The notes below the pieces were generated by a model. The model was not told where the DNA came from and made no database searches. It saw nothing but the letters and a program-made list of their open reading frames with translations. A program made the position numbers and the translations under genes. 64,000 nt of DNA from an uncultured virus (IMG/VR IMGVR_UViG_3300043101_000273) (taxonomy: Duplodnaviria; Heunggongvirae; Uroviricota; Caudoviricetes): the IMG/VR virus record IMGVR_UViG_3300043101_000273. One strand, written 5' to 3'. Position 1 is the first letter of the stretch, and each line of letters opens with the position of its first letter. Positions 2,826 to 25,618 of the stretch are shown here, in pieces.

Positions 2826-3040
2826 TCCGCTCGAGCGAAATAATAAAAAACTGGAGCGATTGTTAATTTTTTAACAAACAATATTTAACTATTTTGGAAT
2901 CAAAATTATATAAATAAAAACATAAGTCCTTTATTTTAAAGGGTTTTTAAGAAGTTTTATTTGTTATTTATTTAACAATAATATAGTAATCAGAAATTAA
3001 ACTCATAATAAAAAGAATAATATTGTTAATAAAATAACAA
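2826..3040. repeat. Dispersed ~200-bp triple-operator element, copy 1
   Basis: CGCTCGAGCG palindrome plus TTGTTAA-N4-TTAACAA-like sites at 2860, 2961, 3023. Confidence 0.8.
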
Positions 3041-3090
3041 GTAAATAGAAAAATAAAAAGGACGGTTATTTTTAACCGTCCTTTTGTTTA

Positions 3091-4146: not shown

Positions 4147-4532
4147 ATTGATTTCCTCCTTAATAGTGAATAATTATTTGTGTGTTTGTTAAGTATTCAT
4201 TTCTCTTAACTTGTTATTATTATACTACATTTTTTATAATTTGTCAAGTGTTTTTTTGAATTTTTTTAAAAAATTTTATTTATATTTTTAATATGAAAAA
4301 TTGATTATATACTTGTAAAATTGATTACGCAGCATTTCAATAAATCATTCGATAAATAACACTTCGATAAATAACACATTAAATAATTAAAAAAAGGCAT
4401 ATAAGGGTATTTAACAGCTTTATGACGTGTGGTACAATTGTGGTACGATTGTGGAATAATTATGGTACGGTTATTTTTAATAAATAGTTTTTTCAATAAT
4501 AAAAAAAGGGTGATTTATTCACCCTTTAATTT

Positions 4533-5504
4533 TTATCTTTCAAACAAAACTTTTTTGCCATAAGTAATTTTTATAATGTTTTCTACTGTCAATGGAATCT
4601 TCTCATATTTATTAGTGTCTGTGTTATATCTACCGCCAGCATTTAATTTGTGGAGAAGTTCTTTTCCTTTAGCACCATTGCAAAAACTATAATCACTAAA
4701 TGTAGACTTATAAAAGATATAATCAATTAATCTTGTTATTTCTACTTTTTCTGTTCCTGTTATTTCATTTAATTCAAACGTAACATTTACAGTTTTTGCT
4801 ATATCTTTAATTTCATTTAAAGGTTTTACAATATCTAACTCCCACGGTTTAACAACTTCATTGTTTACAATTAAATTTTCAACATATGCTACTTTAGATT
4901 TTAACAATGCAAGCTTTTCTCTATTTGAATTTACAATATTTTTAATTGTATCTTCCTTAGATGTATAACCAATTACGCATTTTTTAATATCATTATATTC
5001 GATTTCATTCATTGTTACATATTCTTTAAGACTATCAAAAACATTAAGATTATAAATTTGATATTTCCTTGCTTTTTCTTTCAAGTTTATTATTTCTTCG
5101 GAAAAGTTATTAGTAACTGTGATACTATCATAAAGCTTTTTCATTTCTGTATCATAAATGTTTTTATACTCTTTTATAATTTCTTCCCAAGTTTTTACAT
5201 TACTAGGTAATGATTCACCATTATCGGGACGAGTTGAAAATACCCATTTACTAACAATAAAATTATTATCCTTTACTAACATAGCAAATTGCATTTTGTC
5301 AATTTTCCCTTCAATAAGCATATTGATTGCATCGTCTTTGTCATAACTATAATCGTAATATACATACTTTGCACCATATACTTCTGTTGTGATAACAATA
5401 TATATCTTTGGTTTTATATATCCATCTTCTTTGATTTCAAATATAAAATTACCTTTATTTTCTTTAATGCCCTGTGCAAACTTTTCAAATAATTCTTTGT
5501 TCAT
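4533..5504 (-). CDS. Hypothetical protein, family A paralog 2
   Basis: Clear similarity to 190, 8281, 11689. Confidence 0.9.
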   Translation of the reverse strand: MNKELFEKFAQGIKENKGNFIFEIKEDGYIKPKIYIVITTEVYGAKYVYYDYSYDKDDAINMLIEGKIDKMQFAMLVKDNNFIVSKWVFSTRPDNGESLPSNVKTWEEIIKEYKNIYDTEMKKLYDSITVTNNFSEEIINLKEKARKYQIYNLNVFDSLKEYVTMNEIEYNDIKKCVIGYTSKEDTIKNIVNSNREKLALLKSKVAYVENLIVNNEVVKPWELDIVKPLNEIKDIAKTVNVTFELNEITGTEKVEITRLIDYIFYKSTFSDYSFCNGAKGKELLHKLNAGGRYNTDTNKYEKIPLTVENIIKITYGKKVLFER

Positions 5505-5841
5505 ATTAAAATCCTCCTTATATATGTGTGATTGAGTATTTGTTTTTCTTAACTTGCTTATATTGTATCACATATTTTACAATTTGTCAAGTATCTTTTT
5601 TGAAAAATATAATGTTGTTTAAATACTTATATTTTCAAATATAAGACGTTTTATAAAATAGATAGAGAATTATATGATAAAATTAAAAACGGCTCTATAT
5701 GAGTCATAAACGCAGCGTTATTAGGTTTTTATAAATAATTTACTGTATTATTCTTAATCAAATATTTTTAAACATAATTATTCACCCGTAATAAAATAAT
5801 TCATTAAAAAAAGGTAGGATATTTCACCTACCTTTTATTTT

Positions 5842-6462
5842 TTATGCTTTATGATTTGCTACCTTGTATAATCTTTGGTATGTTAAATATAATGCCTTTA
5901 CATTTTTAACCCATACTGGCAATATTATATTTTTAGTAATATTATTTGCACTGTAACGAATGCCATCCATAACAATCTTTGAAATTTCTCTATCTGTCAA
6001 ATTACTGAAAATCTCCTTATTACTATCTATAAGATTTTCAATGTTTTCATTCAACTTACGATATTTATTCATAAAACGACAATTTTCACATTTACTGCAA
6101 GTAGATTTATCTCTTGTAGTATCATCAGTTAAATTATAAAAATATGTTGAGTAATCATTTGTTATCAACTCTACCATTTCATTTATTACCGCAGCTAAAA
6201 AATTTTCTTCAACAGATTTAATGTTTAAATTTTCAAAAGAAGATTTCTTAGTAATTGCATTGTTTGGATTTGTAAAACAATCTGTCGCACTATAAATGCG
6301 ATTAAACATTTTGACACTTAAAAAGCAATTATCATTTATAAATGACTTGAAAAAATCTTCAAATATCCCTTCCAATTCAATGTTGAATACAGTTAAATCA
6401 ACATTATTCTTTTTTTCATACTCATAAACCTTCTTAACATTTTCAAATAAATTAGTTTTCAT
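5842..6462 (-). CDS. Hypothetical protein with Cys cluster (CSKCENC)
   Basis: ORF with RBS, promoter and terminator. Confidence 0.85.
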   Translation of the reverse strand: MKTNLFENVKKVYEYEKKNNVDLTVFNIELEGIFEDFFKSFINDNCFLSVKMFNRIYSATDCFTNPNNAITKKSSFENLNIKSVEENFLAAVINEMVELITNDYSTYFYNLTDDTTRDKSTCSKCENCRFMNKYRKLNENIENLIDSNKEIFSNLTDREISKIVMDGIRYSANNITKNIILPVWVKNVKALYLTYQRLYKVANHKA

Positions 6463-6798
6463 AATAAAATCCTCCTTATATATGTGTGTAATTAAGTATT
6501 TGTTTTTCTTAACTTGGTTATATTATACCATATATTTTATTATTTGTCAAGTATTTTTTTAAAAAAATATTTATTATTCGGATGAGTTTATATCTAATGT
6601 TAAATAACACTTAAATCGTTTATATCGACTGTATTTGCCATTTAAATATTAGATTAAATGTTTTCCGCACTTTTTATTAAACGTTTAAATAAAGGCAAAT
6701 GAATGAATTTTACAATATATTTAAACAACATAAAACACTGAATACTTAAAGTTTATTATAATAAAAAAGAGGTAGTATCTACTACCTCTTAATAATTA

Positions 6799-6978
6799 TT
6801 ATCTACTCTTATAAAGACCAGACATAGACTTATAAAATTTATCTGATATAATCGGTAATCTTGCATCTCTTACAATTTCTGTTGTATTATCCATATAAAA
6901 AATTTTACCTACTTTGTTACCATTAATATCCATAGCTGCGTACCATTTTTTTACTTGTTTTCCATTCCATTCTGTCAT
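6799..6978 (-). CDS. Small protein, 59 aa (MTEWNGKQVKKWYAAMD...), missing from ORF track
   Basis: AAGGAGG RBS 6987-6993; hand translation open to TAA. Confidence 0.75.
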   Translation of the reverse strand: MTEWNGKQVKKWYAAMDINGNKVGKIFYMDNTTEIVRDARLPIISDKFYKSMSGLYKSR

Positions 6979-7019
6979 ATCAATAACCTCCTTGAAATAA
7001 TTATCCTCTTATATTTTTT

Positions 7020-7181
7020 TTAGTGAGAAAAATCATCCTCTACAAAATCAATTCCGTCATAGTTTTCGTAAATAACTTCGTTAGGAATATCTAACGCACA
7101 TTCATACTCATTGTCTTGTGAGTAAAAATAACTCCATTTTAAAGTTTCAAGTTGATTGTTGTTTAATTCTCGTACTGACAT
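7020..7181 (-). CDS. Small acidic protein, 53 aa (MSVRELNNNQLETLK...FVEDDFSH), missing from ORF track
   Basis: AAGGAGG RBS; promoter -35 at 7297; hand translation. Confidence 0.8.
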   Translation of the reverse strand: MSVRELNNNQLETLKWSYFYSQDNEYECALDIPNEVIYENYDGIDFVEDDFSH

Positions 7182-7425
7182 TTTAAAAACCTCCTTAAAA
7201 ATAATTGTTAAAAATGTTGTTTAGAAATAGTTGTGTGTGTTTACTAAGATTATGTATTTCTTAGCTTGTTATTATTATACTACACTTTTTATGTTTTGTC
7301 AAGTGTTTTTTTGAAAAAATATTGTACTGCGACAAAAAATATTATTCTTTATATATAAAAAATAAAGGGTGGAAATTCCACCCTCTTTAACATCACCTAC
7401 CTAACTTTATATTTAAAAAGTATAA

Positions 7426-7920
7426 TCAATCGAAAAGTGCATATATCCTTTTAATATCTTCACTGGGAATTGGTCTATATAACCAACCTGTGCCATATTT
7501 ATAAGGCTTTCCTTCGTATTCAACCTCATAAAGATTTATAGACTTTAAATATTCAACGACCTTAGTATAATCATAATCTTTCAATACACCAGTATCAATA
7601 GCATTATGTATTGCTTCTTCCTGTTCGATTGTGCCTGCGTGCATATCGTTTAAGTGATATTTTCTCCACAAGTTAATTATTTCAACTAACTTTTCATTTT
7701 CCAATAAATATGGATAATCTTCTGTTACCGTATCAAATGCCTGTCCAGCTATAAACATATCTGTTTTAATATGATTGTATACACCAATAGAAGCTGCAAA
7801 TACAATACCTTTGTTTTGATTTCTGATTTCTACGTCTGCATAAACAGGGCAATTCTTTACACCAATATTATATCCATCTACCTTGCCTACAAGTATCTTT
7901 TTTTCCTTTAATGTTTTCAT
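7426..7920 (-). CDS. Phage-type hypothetical protein (WxKYHLNDMHAGT / YKYGxGWLY)
   Basis: ORF with RBS, promoter and terminator; motif recalled from uncharacterised phage proteins. Confidence 0.85.
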   Translation of the reverse strand: MKTLKEKKILVGKVDGYNIGVKNCPVYADVEIRNQNKGIVFAASIGVYNHIKTDMFIAGQAFDTVTEDYPYLLENEKLVEIINLWRKYHLNDMHAGTIEQEEAIHNAIDTGVLKDYDYTKVVEYLKSINLYEVEYEGKPYKYGTGWLYRPIPSEDIKRIYALFD

Positions 7921-8280
7921 AATAAAATCCTCCTTAAGAATAATTGTTAAAAATATTTTTTAGAAATATTTTTTAATAATAAGTTGTGTGTGTTTTGTTA
8001 ATCTTTACTATCTCTTAACTTGTTTATATTATACTACATAATTTTCATTTTGTCAAGAGATTTTTTTTAAATTTTTTTATTTATATTTTTAATACATAAA
8101 ATTGATTATATTTCACTGTATGTAATATTTTAATAAACCATTCGATAAACACTATATTTAATAATTAAAAAGAAATATAAAGTATTTAACGGTTTTATGT
8201 GGGATAATTATTGCACAATTATGTTTCATTTAATAATTTTTCAATAATAAAGAAGGGTGAATAAATCACCCTTTAATTTT

Positions 8281-9240
8281 TTACTTTTCAAATAATACGT
8301 TTTTACCATAAGTAATTTTTACAATGTTTTTAGCTGCCAATCTATAACTTGCATTTAATTTATTCAGCAATTCTCTCCCTTTTGTGAAATTATTAAATTC
8401 ATAACAAGAAATTTGCTTTTTGTCAACAATACAATCAATAAGGTTATTAATATTTATTTTTTCTGTACCTGTTATCCCATTTAATTCAAATGTAACATTT
8501 ACTGTCTTTGCAATATCTTTAATTGCAATTAAAGGTCTTACAATATCTAATTCCCATTGCTCAACAACTTCGTTATTGGCAATTAAGTTTTCAATATATG
8601 TTGCCTTTGATTTTAACCATACAAGTTCTTTTTCATTTGATTTTACAATATTCTTAATTACTTCTTCTTTTTGTATATAACCAATTTCAGATTTCAATAT
8701 ATCTGTATATGGTAATTTTTTTTCTGTTGTATTGCGTTTCAAAGCATCGAACACATTTAAGTTATAAAATTGAAAATACCTTGCATCGTATTTCATATCT
8801 GAAATATTCTCTTCTGAAAAATTAGTATCAACCTCAACAATATCATTATAAAACTTTTTCATTTCCGTTTCATAAAGTGCATCATATTCCTGTCTAACAC
8901 TTATAAATGTTTTTATGTTATCGGGTAATGCTGTTCTATCTGTAACTTTAAAAATATGTTCATCTATAATGTAATTATCATCTTTTACTAACATTGAAAA
9001 ATCTCTATTATTAAGATTTCCTTTTACTAATTTTTCAATTAAATATTCTTTGTCATATTCATACTCAGAATAAACATATTTAGCACCTAAGACATTATCC
9101 ACTATTATAGAATATATTCGTGGGTTGTTTTCCTTTTCTATTTGGATTTCAAACATAAAGTGATTTTTGTTTTCCTTTATTCCTTGTGCAAATTTTTCAA
9201 ACAATTCGGCATTCCAACCGTATTTTATCATATTACCCAT
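8281..9240 (-). CDS. Hypothetical protein, family A paralog 3 (start revised to MGNMIK)
   Basis: AAGGAGG immediately upstream of ATG 9240; paralogy. Confidence 0.9.
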   Translation of the reverse strand: MGNMIKYGWNAELFEKFAQGIKENKNHFMFEIQIEKENNPRIYSIIVDNVLGAKYVYSEYEYDKEYLIEKLVKGNLNNRDFSMLVKDDNYIIDEHIFKVTDRTALPDNIKTFISVRQEYDALYETEMKKFYNDIVEVDTNFSEENISDMKYDARYFQFYNLNVFDALKRNTTEKKLPYTDILKSEIGYIQKEEVIKNIVKSNEKELVWLKSKATYIENLIANNEVVEQWELDIVRPLIAIKDIAKTVNVTFELNGITGTEKININNLIDCIVDKKQISCYEFNNFTKGRELLNKLNASYRLAAKNIVKITYGKNVLFEK

Positions 9241-9824
9241 AGATAAATCCTCCTTAAAGATAATTAGTAGTAATTGTGTGTTATTAACAGCATTCATATC
9301 TCTTAATTTGTTATCATTATACTATATGTTTTATGTTTTGTCAAGTATTTTTTGAAAAAATAAAAGATATTTTTGGTATTAAAAAGATTGATTTATAAAT
9401 TATTTGAGAATCATTCAATAATATTCTTTTAAATATGAGCTTTGTAAAAGATTTTAAAAAGTATAATATTAAAAAAAAGATATTGAAAAATATACATTGG
9501 AAAAATATTTGTTTTTTCTATATAAAGGATTTTTTATTTCTAGTAATATTAAAAACAATAATATTGTTACGGATGATAAACTATAAAAAATGATATACGA
9601 TATAATTTATTGATTAAGATATAAAATAATTCTTAGATAATTTGTTGATGTTGATAAATTGTTTTTATATAAAGAACTGCAATGTCTATTTTTATGATTT
9701 AATATTTATATATATCTAAAAACTTTATTACCGCATTATATATAAAACATTATGTATCGGATGATTATATTATTAAAAACACTCCTGTATAGGAAAAAAT
9801 TATGATATATTGAAAATATATAAT

Positions 9825-10037
9825 TTCCGCTCGAGCGGAATAATAAAAACTGGAGCGGTCGTTAATTTTTTAACAAACAATGTTTAACTATTTTGGAATA
9901 AAATATATATAAATAAAAATATAAACCTTTATTTTAAAGGGTTTTGAGAGTTTTATATTGTTAAAATAATAACAAACTCTTACTACCTAGATATAATAAT
10001 ATGAATTATACAGATAATATTGTTAAAAAATAAACAA
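9825..10037. repeat. Triple-operator element, copy 2
   Basis: TTCCGCTCGAGCGGAA palindrome; sites at 9859, 9958, 10020. Confidence 0.8.
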
Positions 10038-10318
10038 ATGATATATATTACAATGTTTATATATTACAACATTTTCTGAAATAAATTTATATACATTATA
10101 CTACAAACAAAATAGTCTGTCAATAGTCTTTAAATAGCTTTATTTTGGCTTTAAAGACGTTTACATATAAATGGTTAGTATTTCACTGGTAAAATAATTA
10201 CACGCTTAAATACAGCGAATAAACGCATATACATCGTATATGTTTTAAGTATATGTTTAGAATACTATAAATATATTTTTACACAATAAAAAAGGGTGAT
10301 TACTCACCCTTATATTTT

Positions 10319-10912
10319 TTATTCGGCTATCAATTCATAACTATCAATATATGACTTTGGTAAATAAGAATTAGTACCTTCCACGTTCCACCAATATTGC
10401 TTAAATTGGCGATTAGGCTGCATCTTGATAACCGTGTATTCATTACCGTTTTTAGTAGTAACTTTAACTTTACCACCAAAGTCAATTTTTTTCAACTCAC
10501 TTGATTTTGTTGTCTTGCTATTTGCTTTTTCAATACATTTATTTCTCCAATTTAAAGCATATTCATTATCAGTTGGTGATAACAGTTTAAGTATTGACTT
10601 TGGGCAATCATACGCATATGGACCTTCAGATTCACCCATTTCCTTATAAGAGAAATTGTAATAGTCATTATTATCAACAGATGTTAAACAAACAACTGCA
10701 AATATTTCTTTTTCATTTTCCTTATTGTTAGTACGCTCAACGGCTGCATAATATACACTGCCTATAACACTTGACTTTAATACTTTAAAACTAGGTGAAT
10801 AACCACCATTATCCCAATAATGCTCATCCTGTGTAAAAAGCTTATCGCATTCAGCTTTTTTATCTACCTTACCATTTTTATAACTTGTTGCGTGTGTTGA
10901 TGTCCATCCCAT
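10319..10912 (-). CDS. DUF6927-like protein of mobile elements
   Basis: MGWT start and YKEMGESEGPYAYDCPKSILKLLSPTDNEYALNWR motif (family recalled, not searched). Confidence 0.6.
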   Translation of the reverse strand: MGWTSTHATSYKNGKVDKKAECDKLFTQDEHYWDNGGYSPSFKVLKSSVIGSVYYAAVERTNNKENEKEIFAVVCLTSVDNNDYYNFSYKEMGESEGPYAYDCPKSILKLLSPTDNEYALNWRNKCIEKANSKTTKSSELKKIDFGGKVKVTTKNGNEYTVIKMQPNRQFKQYWWNVEGTNSYLPKSYIDSYELIAE

Positions 10913-11136
10913 AATCTTAATCTCCTTTCAGATTGTTAAAATAATATATTGTGTGTGAGTGTTAAGTATTTCTCTCTTAACTTGTTTATATTATATCATA
11001 TTTTTTATCGTTTGTCAACTACTTTTTTTAAAATTTTTTAAAAATTTTCTTTTGTTGATACAAAATTATATTTACCGTCATATTGATAAATACTACTAAT
11101 TCTTCCGTAAAAATTGTATTATTTATTAAAAACATA

Positions 11137-11304
11137 TTATTCATAATCACTATATTCATTATTCTTGTATTCAGAATTGAGGTAATCAACCATATTGGCA
11201 ATGTTGTCAAGTTCTGAATGACAATCTTTTAAATTCTCAATCCTTTCAATTTCTTTAGCTAACTGTTCTACCGTTAAAGTAACTAATCTTTCCTTTACTG
11301 TCAT
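11137..11304 (-). CDS. Small protein, 55 aa (MTVKERLVTLTVEQLAKE...), missing from ORF track
   Basis: AAGGAG RBS; promoter variant near 11387; hand translation. Confidence 0.75.
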   Translation of the reverse strand: MTVKERLVTLTVEQLAKEIERIENLKDCHSELDNIANMVDYLNSEYKNNEYSDYE

Positions 11305-11688
11305 TTTAAAAAAACTCCTTTAAAAATTACTGTATTAGATATATTGTTTTTTATCTTGTTTATATTATATCAAACATTTTATAATTTGTTAAGTATTTTT
11401 TTAAAAAAAATCACATAAATATATTTTTTTAAAACACGTCTGCAATGCCCATATTTTGAGTTTTAAGAGTGTTTTATATTTTATAATAGTATTTTGTGTT
11501 AAATTATTTATATCGTCTTATACGGGCAATTATAGCCGTTACATTTTAATATATTCTTATTTTAATATTCATTCGCATAGTAAATTGAATAATATTGTAT
11601 TTTTCTTGTTATGCTGCAAAAAACATCAATTACAGATATTTTTTTACAATAAAAAAGAGTGGTATTAAAACCACCCTTTTTAAAATTA

Positions 11689-12639
11689 TTATCTTTCGAA
11701 TATAACTTTTTTACCATAAGTAATTTTTATTATATGCTCTGTTGTTAAAATTACATTATCCTTATTGTAATAATATCCTACACCTAATTCATTAAGTGTC
11801 TTTTTTGCACTAGCACCATTATAAAAGCAATAAGCATCAAGCTCGGTTCTGTTATTAAGGCAATTAAGTAATCTTGGTATTTCCATCTTTTCTGTCGCAG
11901 TAGTGTTGTTTATCTTAAAAGTAACATTTACTGTTTTTGCTGTATCTTTTATTGATGATAAACCGTCTGCAATATCTTTTTCCCAATTTTCAATATTTTC
12001 ATTATTAGCAATTAAGTTTTCAATATATACAGTTTTAGATTTAATACCTAAAAGCCTTTTTTCATTTTTAGCTATAAGATTTTTAATTGAATTTTCTATC
12101 GGGTTATAACCGCAGATATCACTCAAAATATTGTTTTTGGATAATTCAATTTTTTTCTCATAACTCATAATATTATCTAATGGTTTTTTACCATAAATCT
12201 GACAGTACCTTGCTTCATTCTTCAATCTTTCGATTGTGGTTTCAGTAAAATCAGATACAGGATTGATATTATCATAGTATTCTTTTACTGCATCATTTAA
12301 CTGTTCATTGTATTCTGCAATAATATCAGACAACATCTTCACATTGCTAGGCAACTGTTCTCCATTATCGGGATGAGTTGAAAACATATATTCATCAACA
12401 ATATAGTAATTATCATCCTTTACAATCATTGTAAAGTTATAACTATATGTTTTTCTAAGTCCATTGATAAAGCTTTCAATTGCTTCATCATTAGAATAGA
12501 AATATTCAGAATATACATACTTTGCTTTAAAAACTTCCGTAACAGTAACAATATATGTTCGATTTTTAATAAAGAAAATAAAACTATTCTTGTTTTCCTT
12601 AATTCCCTGTTCAAATTTCTCAAATAATTCTTTATTCAT
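11689..12639 (-). CDS. Hypothetical protein, family A paralog 4
   Basis: Paralogy, RBS, promoter -35 at 12735. Confidence 0.9.
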   Translation of the reverse strand: MNKELFEKFEQGIKENKNSFIFFIKNRTYIVTVTEVFKAKYVYSEYFYSNDEAIESFINGLRKTYSYNFTMIVKDDNYYIVDEYMFSTHPDNGEQLPSNVKMLSDIIAEYNEQLNDAVKEYYDNINPVSDFTETTIERLKNEARYCQIYGKKPLDNIMSYEKKIELSKNNILSDICGYNPIENSIKNLIAKNEKRLLGIKSKTVYIENLIANNENIENWEKDIADGLSSIKDTAKTVNVTFKINNTTATEKMEIPRLLNCLNNRTELDAYCFYNGASAKKTLNELGVGYYYNKDNVILTTEHIIKITYGKKVIFER

Positions 12640-12975
12640 AATAAAATCCTCCTTAAAGATATTTAATAATTGTGTGTGATTGTTAAGTGTTTATCTCTTA
12701 ACTTGTTATTATTATACTATACTTTTTTATATTTTGTCAAGTACTTTTTTTGAAAAAATATAACTATTTTTTAAATAGTAATCAACTATATTTTATTTGT
12801 ATTTTTTATTATATACCCTATTAAAAGACCGAAGGGAATATATAAATATCTTATTTATAGTGTTTATATTGAGCCTGTGGCAGCGTTTAAACATTAAGAA
12901 AAAGAATTGTGAATAAAATTTACATTTAAGTTTTATATATATTGTTTTTATACATATTATTTTTTATATATTATC

Positions 12976-13203
12976 TTAGATGTTTTTACTCATAAGCTCA
13001 TCTACTGTTACAAAAATGCCTTTTTCCCATCTTACATCTTCGATGAGATTTTCAAGAGTTTTTTCAGATATTGCATCTCCAATTTTAGCACCACTCCTAC
13101 TAAAACATTGGTAATACTTTTCACCACCTAAATATCCAATAAATCTATACTCATCCATATTATTTTGTTTTAATATCTTGTTACCTTTCATTAAATCAAA
13201 CAT
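12976..13203 (-). CDS. Small hypothetical protein, weakly similar to 15842..16147
   Basis: AAGGAGG RBS; shared Y.[FY]IG..Y motif. Confidence 0.8.
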   Translation of the reverse strand: MFDLMKGNKILKQNNMDEYRFIGYLGGEKYYQCFSRSGAKIGDAISEKTLENLIEDVRWEKGIFVTVDELMSKNI

Positions 13204-13234
13204 AATTAAATCCTCCTTGTTTTTTTAATATATA

Positions 13235-13450
13235 TCAAGCAATTACCCATCCTATACCGTCAACTTTAGTTTCAATTTTACATTTGTCAAGTACGTTTTT
13301 AACATTACTACTAATAGTAGTAGGCTTTTCTTTTTTTACCATTCTGTTATAAATATCTATAAGTTCATAAACATCATTTAATGTTACAAAAACACCTTTT
13401 ACTTTTTCTCCGTTTATCCAATTTTCAATGTATTTCCTTAATTGTGCCAT
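13235..13450 (-). CDS. Small hypothetical protein (ends GIGWVIA)
   Basis: AAGGAGG RBS; promoter -35 at 13540. Confidence 0.8.
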   Translation of the reverse strand: MAQLRKYIENWINGEKVKGVFVTLNDVYELIDIYNRMVKKEKPTTISSNVKNVLDKCKIETKVDGIGWVIA

Positions 13451-13751
13451 ACTAAAATCCTCCTTATATTGTTTAATAAAGTATGTATATCACTAAGTAT
13501 CTCTTAGCTTGTTTATATTATACTACATTTTTTACAATTTGTCAAGCACTTTTTTTGAAAATTTTAAAATTATTTGTATTGCTGCGTCATAAAGTATAAA
13601 ACGCTTTATTTTGCGTTATATAGACGTTTATATTTAGGTAATATATTTTATCAAGCTAATATAAACAAACCTCATACAACGCAAAATACAAGGGATATAA
13701 CGGCATTTATTCTGTAATAAAAAGCGGACTTATTAAAGTCCGCTTAATTCA

Positions 13752-14912
13752 TTAAAAATTGCTTTTGAATCTGTTTAATCCATTAGTAACAACATTGTTA
13801 GTGCCTACTGGCAATATAGGCAATACAAGGAAATTATAATCACCGTCACCAGTAAAATATGTGATTGCCTTTTCATTATTAAAGCTGTATTCAACTTTAT
13901 TTGTATCAATGTTTGAAATGATATCATACAAGTATGAAGGATTATAGCAAACATAAAACTCACTGTTTATATTTACACTATCCGTTGTTATTTCATCCAT
14001 ACTATCGATTTTACCATTAGTAACAAAAGAATACAATTTGTTATTATCTGCGTGCATAAAAATCGGGTTATCCTTTGGACTTGTAATAATATCACAATCG
14101 TATTTAAGTACATTCAAAAAGTCACTTGTATCTATAATTGCTTTTTGTGTGGTGCTTGATATGCCATCAAATAATTTTTTAACATTAAGAAATTCAAGAT
14201 TGAGTTTACGCTGCGTATATCTAAAACCATTACCACTAACAACAACGCATTTATTACCTTGTGATACTACTACTGTACTTGTATCTTTTTTATCAATGAG
14301 TTTTTTAAACATTGCCATATTGTTACTGTTTATAAGTACGTTTGTTTTATTTTCAATTGTAGTGTTATTCATTGTACGGGTTACAGCTTTATAGCCATCG
14401 CACGCTTCAACTTGATTTTCTAAGGTATTGAAATTGACACATTCAAGTGCTTTTCGCACACTGTTTTTGTCGGTGAAATTTACAAGTCTTGCCATTGTAT
14501 CAATGAACCAGTCTGCGGTAGTGGTGAAAATTGTATTCTCATTTTTATCATTTACAAGATGTGAAAAATCAGTAGGTTCATATCCCATAAGAGTTATTTT
14601 CTTTTTGCCACAAGTGATATTTACATTTTTATTATCTGTATCATATGCAAAGTAAACATCGCCACTCAATTTTGTGATTGCCTTTATATCCTCATAATCA
14701 ATTGCAAAACTATCTATATCATAATCATATTTTGCATTAAGATATATTTCAAGCATTTGGTCTGAATGCCCTGTAATCAACTTTAAACCATTGATATCAT
14801 TTACAAAATTGATATGCTTGTAGTTTTCAAAACCACTCTTTTTATCAATGGCAGTAACAACCTTTTCCATAGCCTTTTTTATTTCCTTTGATGCAACCAT
14901 AATATTTTTCAT
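13752..14912 (-). CDS. dnaN: DNA polymerase III beta sliding clamp-like protein
   Basis: 386 aa; ACDGYKAV (cf. ATDGHRLA), YNPSYLYDII, C-terminal FLVLPI as in beta clamps; divergent. Confidence 0.75.
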   Translation of the reverse strand: MKNIMVASKEIKKAMEKVVTAIDKKSGFENYKHINFVNDINGLKLITGHSDQMLEIYLNAKYDYDIDSFAIDYEDIKAITKLSGDVYFAYDTDNKNVNITCGKKKITLMGYEPTDFSHLVNDKNENTIFTTTADWFIDTMARLVNFTDKNSVRKALECVNFNTLENQVEACDGYKAVTRTMNNTTIENKTNVLINSNNMAMFKKLIDKKDTSTVVVSQGNKCVVVSGNGFRYTQRKLNLEFLNVKKLFDGISSTTQKAIIDTSDFLNVLKYDCDIITSPKDNPIFMHADNNKLYSFVTNGKIDSMDEITTDSVNINSEFYVCYNPSYLYDIISNIDTNKVEYSFNNEKAITYFTGDGDYNFLVLPILPVGTNNVVTNGLNRFKSNF

Positions 14913-15078
14913 AATAAAAATCCTCCTTGTGTTATATATTGTTTTGTTTTGTAAAAATAAATGTGTGTGTGTTTTGTTTTTTATTTATTATCATTATACC
15001 ACGTTTTTTATAATTTGTCAACTACTTTTTTTATTTTTTTGAGTGTAGGATAGGCTTTTTACAGCTTATCCTTTTTTA

Positions 15079-15291
15079 TTACTCTTTAATGTTATTTATC
15101 ATTCTAGTTATTGATATTTCCGCTTTACTCTTTAAATAAAGAAAACTTAATTGACTTGTGTATTCTGCCTTTAACTGTTCAATAGTTGAAATTTTCTTTT
15201 CCAACATTTCATATTCACACATTAAACCTCTATCATAAAGAGTATCAATCTTTTCCATCATATTTACAAACTTTTCAACACTATATTCCAT
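15079..15291 (-). CDS. Small hypothetical protein
   Basis: RBS, promoter -35 at 15374, terminator. Confidence 0.8.
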   Translation of the reverse strand: MEYSVEKFVNMMEKIDTLYDRGLMCEYEMLEKKISTIEQLKAEYTSQLSFLYLKSKAEISITRMINNIKE

Positions 15292-15426
15292 ATTAAAATC
15301 CTCCTTTAAAATTGTATGTATATGTGTTTGCTATCTCTTAGCTTGCTTATATTATACTACACTTTTTATAATTTGTCAAGAACTTTTTTGAAAAAATTAA
15401 AAATTTTTTATTATTTTAAAATAAAA

Positions 15427-15632
15427 TCCGCTCGAGCGGAAAAACTCGAGCGGTCGTTAATTTTTTAATAAACAATGTTTAACTATTTTAAAATTAAAAT
15501 TATATGTATAAAAATACAAATCCTTATTTTAAAGGGTTTCAAGATTTTTTAATTGTTATTTGTTTAACAATATTACATAATGTGGATATAAAATATATTA
15601 CAATACACATAACTATGTTAAAAATTTAACAA
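15427..15632. repeat. Triple-operator element, copy 3
   Basis: TCCGCTCGAGCGGA palindrome; sites at 15454, 15553, 15615. Confidence 0.8.
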
Positions 15633-15841
15633 TATTGTTTTTTGCAATAAAAAAAGAATGATATATAATACATTTATTATAGCATAAACTAACATATAAG
15701 TCAATAAAAAAGGCGGTATAATACCACCTTTTTTACATTAAGAATATTTAGAAAAATATTTAGAGATATATTTAGAAAAGTGTTTAGAAATATGTTTAAT
15801 AAATTAGATGTTCATTATTAAATGTATACTTATGCTTTTTA

Positions 15842-16147
15842 TCAACAATCTATTTTATCTAACCACTTTTCAAACTCCGCTTTTTCCTGTTCATAATATT
15901 TGTTATATTCTTCCAAGCTCATATCGTTATACTCTTTTTCAAGTTTTTCGCTAATATCAATCTGTTCTATGATTTTTTCAAAATCTCTATTTGTAATTGG
16001 CTCATCAATCGAAGTATTAGTGCCAGCGATATAGTTCTGATACATTCTTTCCTTATATCCTCTTGAGCTAGTATAAAAACCTATATACTCATAACTTCCA
16101 TTATAGCCTCTTTTTTCCAATTCCCTATTAAATTCTCTTAAAGTCAT
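15842..16147 (-). CDS. Hypothetical protein
   Basis: AAGGGAG RBS; ORF. Confidence 0.8.
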   Translation of the reverse strand: MTLREFNRELEKRGYNGSYEYIGFYTSSRGYKERMYQNYIAGTNTSIDEPITNRDFEKIIEQIDISEKLEKEYNDMSLEEYNKYYEQEKAEFEKWLDKIDC

Positions 16148-16207
16148 AAATTATAATCTCCCTTCGATTTTTCAAAAATAGTGTGCTGCGTCCATATAAA
16201 TGTTTTT

Positions 16208-16447
16208 TCAAGCTTTCCAATATTTCTGTATTCCCGATATATGATAAATTGAATTTTCAATATATCTATTGTTTTTTAAAGATTCTGTATTGATTATAAT
16301 GTTTTCGATTTTTTTCATATAATCAGCATTTCTAATTCTAAACTCTTTTATATAGTTTTCGTCAATTAAAATATTAAGTTTGCTATTTTGTAAATCATCC
16401 GTAGTGTTATTAAAAACATAATAACAAAATTCTAAATTTTTCATCAT
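16208..16447 (-). CDS. Small hypothetical protein
   Basis: AAGGAGG RBS; promoter -35 at 16537. Confidence 0.75.
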   Translation of the reverse strand: MMKNLEFCYYVFNNTTDDLQNSKLNILIDENYIKEFRIRNADYMKKIENIIINTESLKNNRYIENSIYHISGIQKYWKA

Positions 16448-17112
16448 ATTGAAAACCTCCTTAAAAAATATATGTGTGTATTATTAAGAATTACGTACTC
16501 TTAATTTGTTATCATTATACTACATTTTTTATATTTTGTCAATATCTTTTTTTGAATTTCATAATATATTTTTGAATAATAAAAAACGCTGCGTCATATC
16601 TGTTATTCTTAAAAAATCAATATATACTTATTATAAGTGTTTTGTAAAACAATTCGGCAGTATTATTTTTATTATATATAATGATATGTTTTTTAACAAT
16701 ATATAATTTAATGATTGAATAACTTTATATTAAACTATCTATATATTAAGAATTAAATATATAAATACTTTTTTGCAATTGAATATCTTCCTATTATATG
16801 CAAGTAAATTGTATATCGTTTTTTATATATCTTCCTTTATTTATAATTCTTTTATGAGCTGATTATTCCTTATTACAAGACGTTAAAATGTTGAGTAGTA
16901 TTTTTCACCTAGCAATTTATTTAACCACCCTGTGAGCGTATTAAACCGCTTTATAAGCGGTTATTATTATTTATACTTTATTATACAGGTTCATTATATT
17001 TTCAGACACTATATGTTTAATTCATAATCAATATTTTTCGATATACCTTTATAAGGTACGTTACAATAACCATAGTAATATTAATTATATTTATATATCA
17101 GTTGATATAAAT

Positions 17113-19965: not shown

Positions 19966-20086
19966 CTCTTCATTTTTAAATAATTTTTTGTTGATGACCT
20001 TTTTTAGTAATCCCAAGTATAATAAATAAAAAAATATTTTTTAAAAAGTACTTGACAAATACTAAAAAATATAGTATAATATACTT

Positions 20087-20537
20087 GTGTCAATCAAAAA
20101 GAAACATTCTATGTTTCATTTTCTCCTAAGGGGAGTTTTTAAAAAAGCTCCCCCCTGAAATTTTAAAAATAATTTAAAAAAGTTGAAAAAAGTACTTGAC
20201 AAATAGCAAAAAAAATAGTATAATATATTTGTAATCAAGAAAGACTAAAAGACAACAACTAAAAAAACATGTTTGGTTGTTGTAGATAGATATAAAAATC
20301 TTCTTTTAGAAAAAAAGTGTGTGTGTGAAAAAGAGTGGATATTTTATCCGCTCTTTTTTCTTTCTAAAAATATTAAAAAAATGCTTGACAAAGGTTTAAT
20401 TATATAGTATAATATATTCGTGGTTAAGGGAAGAACCACAAGGGTTTGTATGTTTTCATATCGTACAAATTCCTCCTCGTAAGTAAGTTTTTTAGAGTTT
20501 TTGACAAAGAAGGGAGCATCAGGCAGCTCTCTTTTTT
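20087..20537 (+). ncRNA. Three tandem ORF-less promoter-terminator units (candidate sRNAs ~20087-20160, ~20231-20360, ~20420-20537)
   Basis: TTGACA-17-TATAAT at 20052, 20196, 20385, each followed by 70-130 nt ending in a GC hairpin; contain TTCTCCT, GTGTGTGTGTG and TTCCTCCT. Confidence 0.65.
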
Positions 20538-20636
20538 GTTGTGTGATTTTTCAAAAATACGTTGACAAAGAATAAAAAATGTGCTATAATTCATTTGTAC
20601 TTAAAAAACACATTACGAAAAAAGGAGGAAGATAGT

Positions 20637-22907
20637 ATGCTTTCAAAAGAACTAATAGAAAGATACAAAAATCTGTACATGGTTAATGGCAGTCTTTCAA
20701 AAATGATTTTGAAAACCATAAATGCTAATATTACTTATAATTATGCAGGATGGGAAAATAAATTAACCAAAGTACTTGGTTTTGCAGAACCAAAAGCTAC
20801 TTATAACTGGGTTAAAAAAACAATGCCAGAGTTTTATAGCGAACAATGTTATAATGAAAACAACAGAATTAATGAAGTCGCTAATATTATAAAGAACATG
20901 GATATTGTACCTTTTCTTGAAAAGAACTGGAATAAGAAATTATTTAAAGTTCTTAATAAAATTGATAACACAATATTAACAGAAGTAGATGCCTGTTTAT
21001 ATGTTTGTCATAATATGCCTGAATTTTTTGGTCTTACAACAGAGTTTTCTACTGATGAAGATATTGAAGAAGCAAAAGTTGTTATCATTGATAATTTGAG
21101 TGATGATTTTGCTCTTAATAGAAATGCCATTGAATGTATTAGTGAAATAACAAGCATTCCTATTTCAGAAGTCAATAATTGGTTGGATAAAAATATTCCT
21201 GATTTTTATTCAAGAGAATTTTTAAATAGTAAAGATAATATTGCAAAAAATACTATTGCAAAAGATAACATTACTAAAAACTCAAACAAAGAAGTTATTG
21301 AAACTAATACAGAAAATATTTCTGAGAAAGTTCCTGATAAGGAAGTTGTTAATGAAGAAATTTCTAATAGTATTTCTAATAATACTTCTGATAATAGTAC
21401 TGCTAATAATATAGAAGAAACTTCTAAGGAAAATATTGAAGTAATAGAAAAACCAAAAATTCTTACAAAAGAAGATATTATTAAAAATTCTAATATTGAC
21501 TTTTCAAAACAAAACTGGGAAGATGAATTATCTAAAGAGTTTAATCTTTCATCAGAAGAAACACATGATTGGGTTAAACAAAATATGCCTAATTTTTATA
21601 ATGAAAAATGTTTTAATGAAAATACTATTTTAAATAATAATAAAAAATTAGTATTGAATTGTAAAGTTGATTTTAATAAAAGGAACTGGCATATTGAATT
21701 ATCAAGAGTAATGAATAATACTCCTGAAGAAGCATATGTTTTTGTTAAAACTAATATGCCTGATTTTTATGATAAGTGTTTTGCTGATAAAAACTTTGGT
21801 GAAGATAGTATTATACATATAGCTAATTATATATCAATTGCTACTAACTCAGATATTATTTTTACTAATAAGAATTCAGATAAAGAAATAGCTCAATTAT
21901 TTAATTGTAGTATTGAAAAAGCTCGTAGTTTTATAAGTGATATTTTATTTATAAAGGTAGATTTTGAAAACGAAGAAACTATTGAAGATAATATTAATGC
22001 TTCTAATGATATTTCAATAAATAATGTTTCTGATGAAACACTTAATGAAACGTATTCTAACGAAGAAATGTTTTCTAATAATGAAGAAGTATTTTCTAGT
22101 AATGAAAACTTTTCTAATGATATTTCTAATAATACTTCTAATAATAATCTTTCTAATAATATAGAAAATTCTATTGAAGAAGATATTATGATAGAAAATG
22201 ATAAAATTATTGAAGAAAATGTTCCAGAAGAAAACATTATAGAAGATAGTTCAGAAAATGAAGTTAAAGAACCTTCTATAAGAGAGTTAAATAGGAAGCA
22301 TATTGAAGAAACTTTTGATTTAAGAGTTCTTAGAAATAGAAAAGCTACTGATGCTGCTCTTTTACTTAAAAGAATTGATATGTTGAAAAATTGTGATATT
22401 GATTTTTCACTCCCTGATTGGAAATATAAAATTGCTGATTTATTTGAAGTGGAAGTTGGAAGTTTATATGGCTACTTCGCTAGAAATCTTCCTAAGTTCT
22501 ACGAAAAATATTGTTTAAAACAAAGAAATTCAAAATTAAAAAGGCAACAGACTATTCGTTATGCAAACAAAAAAGAACTTATAATGAATAGCAATATAAA
22601 CTTTTCTCAAAAAGGTTGGACAGAAAAATTAGCAAAACTCTTTAATTCTACCCCTAAAAAAAGTAGTATGTGGGTAAGAAACAATATGTATGATTTCTAT
22701 ATCAATAATTGTTTTAAGGCAATTAAAAATGAAAATAAGAACACAGAAGTTCCAAGAAGAATCAATGAAATAAAGAAAGCTAATATTGACTTAACTAAGA
22801 ATGACCATGTAGAAAAGATTGCAAAATTATTCAATGTATCTAAATTAGAAGTACAACTTTTCATAGAAGAATATATTGAAGAAATATGCGAAGCTAATCT
22901 TATTTAA
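20637..22907 (+). CDS. Helical-repeat protein 1 (~9 NIDFSKxxW...WVxxNMPxFY units); start revised
   Basis: Track start is the TTG of the -35 box; AAGGAGG precedes ATG 20637. Confidence 0.9.
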   Translation: MLSKELIERYKNLYMVNGSLSKMILKTINANITYNYAGWENKLTKVLGFAEPKATYNWVKKTMPEFYSEQCYNENNRINEVANIIKNMDIVPFLEKNWNKKLFKVLNKIDNTILTEVDACLYVCHNMPEFFGLTTEFSTDEDIEEAKVVIIDNLSDDFALNRNAIECISEITSIPISEVNNWLDKNIPDFYSREFLNSKDNIAKNTIAKDNITKNSNKEVIETNTENISEKVPDKEVVNEEISNSISNNTSDNSTANNIEETSKENIEVIEKPKILTKEDIIKNSNIDFSKQNWEDELSKEFNLSSEETHDWVKQNMPNFYNEKCFNENTILNNNKKLVLNCKVDFNKRNWHIELSRVMNNTPEEAYVFVKTNMPDFYDKCFADKNFGEDSIIHIANYISIATNSDIIFTNKNSDKEIAQLFNCSIEKARSFISDILFIKVDFENEETIEDNINASNDISINNVSDETLNETYSNEEMFSNNEEVFSSNENFSNDISNNTSNNNLSNNIENSIEEDIMIENDKIIEENVPEENIIEDSSENEVKEPSIRELNRKHIEETFDLRVLRNRKATDAALLLKRIDMLKNCDIDFSLPDWKYKIADLFEVEVGSLYGYFARNLPKFYEKYCLKQRNSKLKRQQTIRYANKKELIMNSNINFSQKGWTEKLAKLFNSTPKKSSMWVRNNMYDFYINNCFKAIKNENKNTEVPRRINEIKKANIDLTKNDHVEKIAKLFNVSKLEVQLFIEEYIEEICEANLI

Positions 22908-23033
22908 ATACCATTTAAAGGAGCTGAAATATGCTCCTTTTTTATTATTTATTTATTGACAAAACATAAAAAATATGGTATAATACAAACGTACAAGAAA
23001 GTTTTTAATAAATACAATGAGGAGGACACTCTT

Positions 23034-24809
23034 ATGGAAGAGAATAAATTGGATTATTATTATAAAAAATATGCTAATAAGAGTTATACTTTTAGAAGCG
23101 TATTAAACAGTAAAGTTGATTTTTCAAAAAAAGATTGGCAAAATAAATTATGTGAAGTTGTTAATTTCTATAATCCTAAAGCAGCTCATGATTTTGTAAA
23201 AAATAATATGCCAGACTTTTATAACGAATGTTGTTATAATGATAACAATGCTTTAATAAACATTAAAGATATAATAAACCTAGTTGGCATTTCAATACAC
23301 GAAAAAAACTGGGATAAAAAAGTATTTAATATAATAAAAAATTACGATAATACAATTATTACTCCATTACAAGCTTTTAGTTGGTTGAAATATAATATGC
23401 CTGAGTTTTATGGTAATAAAAAAGAGTTATTACATAAAACAGATGTAAGGTCTAAAAATTCTCTTAATAAATTAAGAATAGAAATGATAAAGAATCTAAG
23501 TGATGGTTTTATTTTACAATCAGACGCATTAGATTCAATAAGTGTTATTATTTCTATGTCAAGAGATGATGCAAGAAGTTGGATGTTAAAGAATATTACC
23601 AATTCCGCTAAAAAAACAACAACTAATAATTATATGTTCGTTGATAAGAATGAATTTATAAAAAATACTGGTATTGATTTCAGTAAGGAAAATTGGAACG
23701 AATTATTATGTAAAAGATTTAGTAATGAAACTCCTGAAAGTATTAAAGAATATGTAAAAAATAATATGCCAGATTTTTATAATGAATGTTGTTTTAATGA
23801 AAATACTATTATAAATAACAAAAGAAATGTAGTTTTAAATTCTAAAGTAAATTTTAGTAATAGAAATTGGCATATTGAATTATCCAAAGTAATGAATAAT
23901 ACACCAGAAGAAGCTTATAACTTCGTTAAAGATAATATGGAGTCTTTATATAAAAGAGCTTTTAAGGATGATAGATACGGAGAAGATGGTATATTATCCA
24001 TTGCTAATCAATTACAAATTATTGTTAATTCAGGTATTAACTTATTTGATAAAAATTGCAATAAGAGAATAGGTGAGTTACTTAATATAAGTTATAATGA
24101 AGTTTACAATTTAACCACTAAACATTTATTATTAAATGAAAAATTAAAAACTATACCTAAAGGAAATATTATTAAAGAAGATATTATTCCAAATGAACAA
24201 TTAATTGAATTAAATAGGAAAAATATTGAAAATTGTAGTAGATATTATAAAAGCAACAGTAGTGAAGAAATTCAAACTTTTATAAATAGAAAAGAACTAA
24301 TGATTGAGTCAGGAATTAATTATACTAAAGAAAATTGGGCAAATCTATTAGCAGAAAAGCTTAACATGAATTATTTAGATATTTATTATTGGGTAAAGAA
24401 AAATATGAATATATTCTTTACTAATTATTGTTACCATTATGATGAAGAAAATTATAATGTAATACAATATAAAAAAAATATTATAGATAATAGTAATATA
24501 GATTTTTCAAAGTATGGTTGGGATAGTGAATTATCAAAGTTATTTACTACTACTCAACGTAAAACTCATGAATGGGTTAGAGATAATTTACCTGACTTTT
24601 ACAGAAATAATTGTTTTAAATACACTAATGGTTCAAATCGTTCAGATGAAATAAGAAGAAGATTACAAGTAATGAAACAGAATAATGTAAGTTTTCATTC
24701 TAGTGAATGTATTCCAAAGATTGCAAAGTTATTTAATATTTCTGTTTTATCTGCAAAAAACTTTATAAAAGAATGTAAAACTTATGTTCCTGCAGAAAAA
24801 CTTGTATAA
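23034..24809 (+). CDS. Helical-repeat protein 2 (~9 units); start revised
   Basis: Promoter at 22956; GAGGAGG before ATG 23034; collinear with proteins 1 and 3. Confidence 0.9.
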   Translation: MEENKLDYYYKKYANKSYTFRSVLNSKVDFSKKDWQNKLCEVVNFYNPKAAHDFVKNNMPDFYNECCYNDNNALINIKDIINLVGISIHEKNWDKKVFNIIKNYDNTIITPLQAFSWLKYNMPEFYGNKKELLHKTDVRSKNSLNKLRIEMIKNLSDGFILQSDALDSISVIISMSRDDARSWMLKNITNSAKKTTTNNYMFVDKNEFIKNTGIDFSKENWNELLCKRFSNETPESIKEYVKNNMPDFYNECCFNENTIINNKRNVVLNSKVNFSNRNWHIELSKVMNNTPEEAYNFVKDNMESLYKRAFKDDRYGEDGILSIANQLQIIVNSGINLFDKNCNKRIGELLNISYNEVYNLTTKHLLLNEKLKTIPKGNIIKEDIIPNEQLIELNRKNIENCSRYYKSNSSEEIQTFINRKELMIESGINYTKENWANLLAEKLNMNYLDIYYWVKKNMNIFFTNYCYHYDEENYNVIQYKKNIIDNSNIDFSKYGWDSELSKLFTTTQRKTHEWVRDNLPDFYRNNCFKYTNGSNRSDEIRRRLQVMKQNNVSFHSSECIPKIAKLFNISVLSAKNFIKECKTYVPAEKLV

Positions 24810-25017
24810 ATTGAAAAAACTTATATAAGTATGTTAATAAATAATTATTTTTGCAATATAAATAATTGATGTAATCATAATGTATATTGTCTTGGCATTT
24901 AAAAACATCATTCCTTTTTATAATTTTATAGTTTTAAAGAAAGAGAACGAAATTAATTTTCGTTCTTTTTTCTTAAAAGTACTTGACAAATATGAAAATA
25001 AGTATTATAATAATATC

Positions 25018-25397
25018 ATAATTCAAAGTTCATTGTAAGTTTTCAAAAGTATACAAATTCCTCCTAAGAATGATTGTATATTTTTAACCAAAACCAGTAG
25101 TTAAACAAACAGGAAGAAAGAGAGAGTTTTCTCTCTTTTTTCTTTTTATAAAAAACTTGCTTTATAATTGAAATGTTTTTATAAATTGGATAATAAGATA
25201 AATATTTTTATAAAAAATTAAAAATATTACTTGACAAATGTATTTTTTTATGATAACATATGATTAAATCACATTAATTATTTTTGTGATTTAGCCATAT
25301 AGTAGGACGTTTTTATCCTCCGTCCACATAGTTTTCTAAAATTTTGTGTTTTTCGTATTGATAAGAAAGGTAGATTATTCAGAATCTATCTTTTTTA
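25018..25397 (+). ncRNA. Two further ORF-less promoter-terminator units (~25018-25141, ~25266-25397)
   Basis: TTGACA at 24983 and 25231 (second -10 weak); ACAAATTCCTCCT and ATCCTCC motifs; terminators. Confidence 0.55.
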
Positions 25398-25618
25398 TTT
25401 TTATAGTTTTACAAATAGTATTTATAAATTAAAAAATTTATTTTTATTATTTATATTTGCTCTAATATTTAAAAAAATCTATTAAAATACAGTAAATTCC
25501 AATATTTTTTTAATAAATTATATTGACAAACATTAAAAAAAGTAGTATAATAATAATCAACATAAAATGTATGGCAATGTATAATTTTTAGAGCAACACA
25601 ATAAGGAGGGTAAATGTA

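Follow-up and report, generated by a model that had tools for sequence, protein, structure and literature searches.

Among the antisense RNAs of phages, c4 is cut from the transcript that it controls and sar overlaps its target. As outlined in a review, the c4 RNA of phages P1/P7 covers the ribosome-binding site of a phage mRNA, blocking its translation, and the sar RNA of P22 is tabulated as acting in trans (PMC12197685). The Rsa RNAs and RNAIII of Staphylococcus aureus are described as possessing a 5' hairpin, an unpaired C-rich UCCC motif and a terminator, and as binding the Shine-Dalgarno (SD) sequence and blocking the initiation complex (PMC2790875). In enterobacteria, GcvB is reported to bind a C/A-rich enhancer element in a 5' untranslated region (PMC4474525). 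Here a stretch of 64,000 nucleotides (nt) from an uncultured virus of the Caudoviricetes (IMG/VR record IMGVR_UViG_3300043101_000273), referred to below as the window, was analysed; at 100% identity, its first 48,164 positions (1-48164) match a virus record of 379,029 bases (G002) in reverse complement. The + strand of the window carries, within 20052-25400, five units of 74-135 nt that lack an open reading frame (ORF), namely U1 to U5, each of which consists of a promoter, a stable fold and a terminal hairpin. These may be trans-acting antisense small RNAs that block translation initiation, some of them directed at early mRNAs of the phage itself (U2 and, with less certainty, U4), an explanation which is favoured here, but tentatively, its chances being judged to fall a little short of even.

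The units resemble the Rsa, RsaE/RoxS and RNAIII RNAs, as far as the cited account characterizes these, in having their own promoter, a Rho-independent terminator, no reading frame and a C-rich motif that is predicted to be unpaired in U1, U4 and U5. They differ from that class in showing no sequence or Rfam relationship to it and in having the full CCUCC(U) as their motif instead of UCCC, and also in being phage-encoded, clustered and placed behind constitutive-looking early promoters. With GcvB, as the source portrays it, U2 shares a predicted single-stranded seed, here of G and U, which faces C/A-rich sites in 24 leaders. However, it has no homology or Rfam match to GcvB, and its target would be a strict AC dinucleotide repeat in the phage's own early leaders. 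No domain of Hfq was found in the 379-kb record (which excludes window positions 48165-64000), and none of RNase III or ProQ. With c4 and sar, as the review presents them, some of the units may share complementarity to phage ribosome-binding sites, which is strong in U2 for a class of leaders, only suggestive in U4 for the leader of the gene starting at 7920 (3/200 shuffles are as good) and not above chance in U1, U3 and U5. Unlike c4 and sar, the units are separate trans-encoded genes with their own promoters, five in number, at 12-30 kb from their candidate targets. Membership in the Rsa, GcvB and c4/sar families fails on homology and, for c4/sar, also on genomic arrangement. What sets the present case apart is that the units form a cluster of five, that the proposed GU/AC pairing concerns a leader class of 24 genes and that the anatomy mirrors a leader.

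Architecture of the five units

The transcript starts, gene calls and terminators given for the units are predictions of this analysis. U1 has a promoter at 20052..20080 (+) that agrees with TTGACA-17-TATAAT at 12/12 positions and whose extended consensus, AAAAGTAC-TTGACAAATA...TAGTATAAT, is common to the promoters that drive genes. Its predicted RNA (20087..20160, +) would be ~54-74 nt in length, or would read through into U2, and has a fold of -20.2 kcal/mol (z -3.97); TTTCATTTTCTCCT lies at 20114-20127, with UCUCCU (20122-20127) situated between a 5' hairpin and a GGGGAG...CUCCCC hairpin. The promoter of U2 (20196..20224, +) is likewise a 12/12 match and is followed by a predicted RNA of ~130 nt (20231..20360, +; z -5.45), in which the order is a 5' hairpin, UCUUCUUUUAG at 20299-20309, seven A, (GU)5G at 20317-20327 and a terminator hairpin with six U. 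For U3, a 12/12 promoter (20385..20413, +) precedes a predicted RNA of ~120 nt (20420..20541, +; z -5.02), the terminator of which, at 20502-20541, was found by the terminator scan. The anti-start word AUGUUUUCAUA of this unit (20450-20460) lies in a hairpin loop, and UCCUCCU is found at 20471-20477. U4, with a 12/12 promoter at 24983..25011 (+), has a predicted RNA of ~130 nt (25018..25147, +; z -3.84) with a terminator at 25116-25141, GUUUUCA at 25039-25045 and UCCUCCU at 25059-25065 in a hairpin loop. The promoter of U5 (25231..25259, +) is weaker, namely TTGACA-17-TAACAT with TG before the -10 element (10/12), and its predicted RNA of ~135 nt (25266..25400, +; z -5.00) closes with a terminal hairpin and a U-run; here UCCUCC (25316-25321) forms the loop of the hairpin GGACG...CGUCC.

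All five folds beat 200/200 dinucleotide shuffles (z -3.8 to -5.4); each has a 5' hairpin and a terminal hairpin, the latter trailed by U residues except in U1. The terminators of U2 and U5 are absent from the terminator scan list and rest on sequence inspection, folding and the terminator finder made for this analysis. U1 is atypical in having no U-tract beside its large hairpin; only a small CUCC:GGAG hairpin followed by T5 was flagged, and the same terminator finder reads U1 on into U2. A preliminary description of this DNA had proposed at least five ORF-less promoter-terminator units, and these are confirmed, four with promoters of 12/12 and one of 10/12, the terminator of U1 being the irregular one. 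The motifs which it quoted, ATGTTTTCATA, TTTCATTTTCTCCT, TACAAATTCCTCCT and GTGTGTGTGTG, are all located where it had placed them. The promoters of U1-U5 are of the same type as the 37 perfect TTGACA-17/18-TATAAT sites of the window (21 + and 16 minus; 58 sites reach at least 11/12), which drive phage genes. The flanks of the perfect sites are conserved, and most of these sites precede a gene with a strong AAGGAGG ribosome-binding site.

By alignment, the units share promoters and not transcribed sequence, a common core being confined to U3 and U4. This core consists of the exact 14-mer TACAAATTCCTCCT (20464-20477 and 25052-25065) with GTTTTCA upstream. Exact matches to the 14-mer number two, against 0.00 in 100 shuffles; with two mismatches allowed, two matches are reached by 20/100 shuffles. 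U3 and U4 are the sole sequence paralogues, so that the "family" of the preliminary description applies to this pair and is a loose term for the other units, which have only their promoters in common.

Read in sense, the unit bodies contain neither AGGAG nor GGAGG, and the mechanical ORFs that lie over the units (25-56 amino acids) have no spaced ribosome-binding site or run through terminators or promoters. In a search of Rfam 15 at gathering thresholds, only the tRNA-Gln that adjoins the units was matched, and at loose E-values the matches of the units are far below threshold. As far as can be judged from the DNA, the units look like independent non-coding transcription units, their transcription being a prediction.

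Two further candidates were rejected, namely a decayed sense cassette, for which a sense SD is lacking, and a riboswitch or attenuator leader, as a full promoter or unit follows each unit before the next gene and there is no Rfam cis-regulatory match at threshold.

A sixth 12/12 promoter (19279) lies upstream of the cluster and is followed, in window positions 19314-19460 (+), by ~135 nt without a frame, with a weak hairpin-T run at 19431-19444 and a weak fold (z -1.9); this segment is upstream of a 51-amino-acid ORF and the tRNA-Gln. The units sit among five neighbouring genes (20637-31432, +) that are arrays of a ~60-amino-acid repeated module (...NW...W.K.NMPDFY...), for which only weak helix-turn-helix and phrog_14736 matches were found.

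Complementarity to early-gene leaders

Statistics were calculated on the 379-kb record joined to the tail of the window, giving one sequence of 394,865 bases on which a simple ORF-plus-SD rule gave a rough set of 438 gene calls. Of these, 420 have an SD with 4/5 or more positions matching.

The early cassettes of the window (1138-16542, minus) follow one plan, comprising a near-identical promoter, a 5' hairpin AAGTTAAGAG...CTTAAC, (AC)3-5, a spacer and AAGGAGGATTTTATTATG. There are 17 minus-strand promoters between 1257 and 16542, and behind 12 of them comes an (AC) run of at least 7 nt. The resulting twelve leaders, the predicted U2 target class in the window, lie within 1138..16489 (minus) and belong to genes starting at 1149, 1774, 2354, 4146, 6462, 7181, 7920, 9240, 10912, 12639, 14912 and 16447, and twelve further AC leaders lie to the left of the window in the same phage record. 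Genome-wide there are 43 (AC) runs of at least 7 nt, 24 of them in the 5' leaders of 24/438 genes, all of which are early cassettes; these genes span ~-59 kb to +16.4 kb in window coordinates.

The 11-nt (GU)5G run of U2, GTGTGTGTGTG (20317-20327), occurs once in the window, is matched in 0/100 shuffles and has a predicted probability of being unpaired, P(unpaired), of 0.58. Cofolding of U2 gives a mean gain of -18.8 kcal/mol with the AC-leader genes compared to -6.1 with others, and the mean duplex energies are -25.3 kcal/mol and -12.6 for the rest, respectively. For the single-stranded part of U2 the class difference in duplex energy is -12.7, compared to -2.6 +/- 1.7 in 20 shuffles, and its best duplex, at -34.1, is reached by 0/20 shuffles. 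A profile of the 24 leaders matches the reverse complement of U2 (20326-20293) colinearly, with the AC run, a T-rich spacer and AAGAAGATTTTTA against AAGGAGGATTT (E 0.0047 in the 1,182-nt space of the five units). The GU run of U2 is specifically complementary to the (AC)n early-leader class, as had been claimed for the CACAC leaders of the early cassettes when the units were first described, and these leaders are real.

The best predicted target of U4 is the leader and start of the early gene 7426..7920 (7906..8021, minus), which possesses a 5' hairpin, ACACACACA and then AAGGAGGATTTTATTATGAAAACAT. This gene ranks 1/438 for U4 by duplex energy (-26.5 kcal/mol) and 2/438 by cofold. The reverse complement of U4 is colinear with its leader over ~58 nt, a stretch that begins before the SD and extends beyond the start codon, with a score of 40 that is reached against the 438 leaders by 3/200 shuffles. 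Genome-wide (395 kb) the leader is also the top antisense window of U4, where six shuffles scored 33-39.

The same gene had originally been assigned to U3, on the basis of the 11-mer ATGTTTTCATA (20450-20460), which is identical to + strand positions 7911-7921. This identity holds, and the 11-mer has three matches in the window against 0.25 expected; however, exact 11-mers shared by the units and the genome are no more frequent than chance allows (blastn-short E 2.4-6.7), for which reason the 11-mer was rejected as evidence in its own right, and the best antisense alignment of U3 is equalled by 23/200 shuffles. It is for U4 that this gene comes out as the leading predicted target. Matches at other early starts had also been noted, and the U3 loop does match all four of the genes that start with NTGAAAAC, three of which belong to the left-arm early cassettes of the window. 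Complements of at least 9 nt that overlap a start are only borderline in number, with 14 against 2.6 for U3 (5/100 shuffles) and 11 against 3.4 for U1 (4/100), and are not raised for U2, U4 and U5.

U5 matches the start of the TnpB-like gene 54625 in antisense at 16/17 positions (E 0.42), but this is not above shuffles and is unsupported by duplex energy; gene 54625 is the best cofold partner of the unit. UUCCUCCU would find its perfect partner, AGGAGGAA, in 17 genes, including the neighbours 20637 and 27998. Set against shuffled controls, the silencing by pairing that was first proposed for the units is partly supported, being strong for the leader class of U2 and suggestive for U4 (3/200 shuffles as good), whereas no specific target of U1, U3 or U5 rises above chance.

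Anti-Shine-Dalgarno words and mirror-image anatomy

In the 414 nt of unit bodies TCCTCC is found three times, as against three times in 52,290 nt of other co-oriented intergenic sense strand, where CCTCC occurs six times compared to three in the units. In the coding sense strand the two words have frequencies of 0.009/kb and 0.016/kb, respectively. The anti-SD motif, which had been pointed out in the preliminary description, is enriched ~100-fold in the units. It is predicted to be mostly unpaired in U1 (UCUCCU, P(unpaired) 0.82), U4 (UCCUCCU, 0.69) and U5 (UCCUCC, 0.74); U2 has no such motif. In U1 the anti-start word, AUGUUUCAU, is predicted to lie inside a stem (0.19). A pattern representing a reversed start site, TTTCA-N(2-20)-TYCTCCT, occurs 32 times in 395 kb, 25 of these being antisense of called gene starts and seven being orphans, and three of the seven orphans are U1, U3 and U4.

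The units could also be small RNAs that act by other means, either as a sponge or decoy for a protein, such as a sensor of host defence or a factor that binds GGA or the SD, or as stable RNAs produced by processing, for which the small RNAs of the T4 tRNA region offer a comparison. Their position beside tRNA-Gln, their strong folds, the GGA and AAGGG words in loops and terminator arms and the weakness of specific targets in three of the five would suit such a role. Repeated protein-binding motifs and an Rfam family are lacking, however, and the enrichment concerns the anti-SD word itself, and this alternative is considered quite improbable.

In reverse complement, every unit presents a hairpin, a spacer, an SD-like word, a start codon and a frame of 6-11 codons, the spacer holding an AC run in U2 and ACAC in U5. 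The reversed SD-to-start spacing is 3 nt (U1), 12 nt (U3), 13 nt (U4) and 17 nt (U5), compared to ~8 nt in phage genes, and no minus-strand promoter of at least 11/12 adjoins a unit, the 17-29 kb region holding just two such sites (21837 and 28813). Because of this aberrant spacing and the lack of an adjoining minus-strand promoter, the units are read, from their sequence, as mirror images of cassette 5' ends and not as minus-strand genes.

The same evidence bears on the possibility that the units are genes for micro-proteins, read either from the minus strand, where an SD and start open frames of 9, 11, 7 and 6 codons in U1, U3, U4 and U5, or from the + strand (15 codons in U1, 10 in U3). AGGAG(G) followed by a start codon does occur on the minus strand of four units, and the frames of U3 and U4 would both begin MKTY. 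This possibility is nevertheless regarded as highly unlikely: besides their spacing, the minus-strand frames differ in length and content, neither of the two promoter-like sites lies beside a unit and the unit hairpins are upstream in the minus-strand direction, while the + strand frames have no sense SD and the + strand start in U3 is within a stem.

A type I toxin-antitoxin system was also considered and rejected, as the frames behind the antisense SD-like words have 6-11 codons (a small hydrophobic toxin would have ~20-60 amino acids) and aberrant spacing.

The mirror anatomy fits an origin by inverted duplication of leaders. Such inverted and decayed 5' ends of early cassettes, lying between + strand promoters and hairpins, might be functionless relics whose transcription, if any, has no regulatory effect. 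The reversed units do look like truncated cassette 5' ends, the SD-like word of U2 is degraded to AAGAAGA with ATC where ATG would be expected, and the region holds repeated, rapidly duplicating genes. On the other hand, every one of the five is flanked on the + strand by a promoter of its own immediately before it and a strong hairpin immediately after it, and decay leaves the exact UCCUCC in three units and the exact 14-mer of U3 and U4 unexplained. In the U2 mirror image of the SD, moreover, the two A-for-G differences become U in the RNA, where G-U pairs with a true SD are still possible. The relic explanation is judged improbable, though less so than a decoy role. A bolder version of the antisense explanation, itself unlikely as a whole, is that the phage has built a post-transcriptional module from inverted copies of its own early leaders placed behind early promoters, the antisense RNAs of which would cover (AC)n, SD and start codon and progressively silence ~24 early genes.

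Proposed action and genomic setting

What can be read directly in the DNA is the architecture, the enriched motifs, the complementarity and the fact that the units have no SD or ORF in sense; how the units might be transcribed, pair in vivo, repress and be timed may be sketched as follows. Host RNA polymerase would transcribe U1-U5 from their early-type promoters, the hairpin terminators ending the transcripts, and the 5' hairpin and terminator would stabilise the RNAs. The exposed CCUCC-type stretch could then pair with the SD sequence of an mRNA, with the flanks, either (GU)n or a loop complementary to AUGAAAAC, giving preference. U2 would pair along the (AC)n-spacer-SD segment common to ~24 early-cassette leaders, whereas for U4, and to a lesser degree for its paralogue U3, the partner would be the SD and start region in cassettes that resemble 7426..7920. 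The outcome would be lower ribosome loading, and perhaps faster decay, of the paired early mRNAs.

A number of points weigh against this proposal. For U4, after correction for five tests, the target is only suggestive. With U1, U3, U4 and U5, shuffled sequences reach duplex energies comparable to those of the best targets, the minima being -20.8 against -21.9 in shuffles for U1, -30.8 against -25.5 +/- 3.6 for U3, -26.5 against -22.6 +/- 2.3 for U4 and -26.9 for U5, with 8/20 shuffles as good. Shuffles equal the best antisense alignments of U1 in 192/200 cases and of U5 in 42/200, in addition to the figure given for U3. With U2, the leader-profile match has an E-value of 3.4 when taken genome-wide, and the plain alignment that scores highest is of low complexity and falls on the phoH leader. 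The UCCUCCU of U3 is mostly paired (P(unpaired) 0.28, compared to 0.67 for the loop with AUGUUUUCAUA), and the anti-SD of U1 can be locked in the small terminator hairpin. A strong SD is present in almost every phage gene, so that an anti-SD alone could not tell phage mRNAs apart, and since one promoter type serves both the small RNAs and the targets proposed for them, no temporal switch is readable from the sequence. The complement of the 14-mer of U3 and U4 has no perfect site in phage start regions, the best being 12/14.

The evidence, moreover, comes from a single genome, diverged relatives having been found in none of the collections scanned. Protein-anchored scans of viral contigs returned the same phage only, which two viral records hold at 100% identity, and a protein scan of metagenome contigs gave no relatives. 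A look-up of sequencing runs turned up no RNA data set for the phage. A motif scan of viral contigs gave 15 other matches, all antisense of ordinary gene starts or in unrelated DNA; with the same motif there were 84 matches in metagenome contigs, with 0/80 fetched loci resembling window positions 17001-29500. A scan for relatives with promoter words gave six phages, all unrelated.

Some of these points would suit real small RNAs directed at host mRNAs, taking over the cell by anti-SD pairing, with the 14-mer of U3 and U4 as a seed for a host start region AGGAGGAAUUUGUA. Such a role is in keeping with the exact conservation of the 14-mer in two otherwise diverged paralogues, the 12/14 limit on its complement in phage start regions and the chance-level phage targets of U1, U3 and U5. 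However, the complementarities of U2 and U4 are to phage leaders, and the nearest cellular matches of a transposase-like phage gene, at 69% in a Lachnospiraceae metagenome-assembled genome and 45% in Fusobacterium, do not settle which host it would be. Host targeting in place of the antisense action on early phage mRNAs favoured here is considered rather unlikely.

With regard to the phage itself, the window has a G+C content of ~24% and its strand bias switches near 18 kb, leftward genes being on the minus strand and rightward genes on the + strand. Matches to PHROGs include markers of large phages, namely a sliding-clamp-like protein, PhoH, an endolysin-like glucosaminidase and two TnpB-like transposases. 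As the window runs 15.8 kb (48165-64000) beyond the end of the 379-kb record, the whole phage genome is probably larger than that record. The record is classed as a provirus, and the same promoter type continues in window positions 48165-64000.

Other ORF-less units are present in the window, and Rfam gave nothing for those at 39.7-57 kb. On the + strand, 44017-44240 and 52150-52370 are two paralogous promoter-driven structured units that share GACTTCGGGCGATTTGCCGTCCGAAAGGTGAGGGTA, with copies at 81-84% identity elsewhere in the 379-kb record and no Rfam match. Two further paralogues of ~270 nt with identical promoters and no Rfam match lie at 53476-53750 and 56347-56620 (+). The latter may be a guide-type (omega-like) RNA with its own promoter, because it starts directly after the TnpB-like gene 54625-56301. 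Promoter-to-terminator units without a frame are also found at 40302-40623 (+) and 42373-42466 (+), the second of which, a 94-nt unit (z -5.0), stops precisely where the convergent phoH-like gene 42469..43869 has its 3' end. On the minus strand, paralogous ORF-less units of ~250 nt at 15423-15669 and ~9840-10088 stand behind strong promoters and end in ...AACGACCGCTCGAG...CGCTCGAGCGG hairpins.

The small RNAs of lytic and giant phages are barely charted, and the antisense regulators known from phages are for the most part solitary RNAs from temperate ones. One unit described here, U2, is matched to a leader motif common to two dozen early genes, which gives the (AC)n element a testable role. 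The proposed pairs are short and explicit (GU/AC and CCUCC/GGAGG), making compensatory reporter tests feasible in a surrogate host even though the phage is uncultured. If the module of inverted leader copies were real, it would amount to an RNA-only shut-off of early genes in a giant phage that seemingly uses host-type promoters throughout the region. If the antisense explanation is true, a cluster of five anti-initiation RNAs would mean that a phage can time or tune a whole class of genes by RNA pairing alone.

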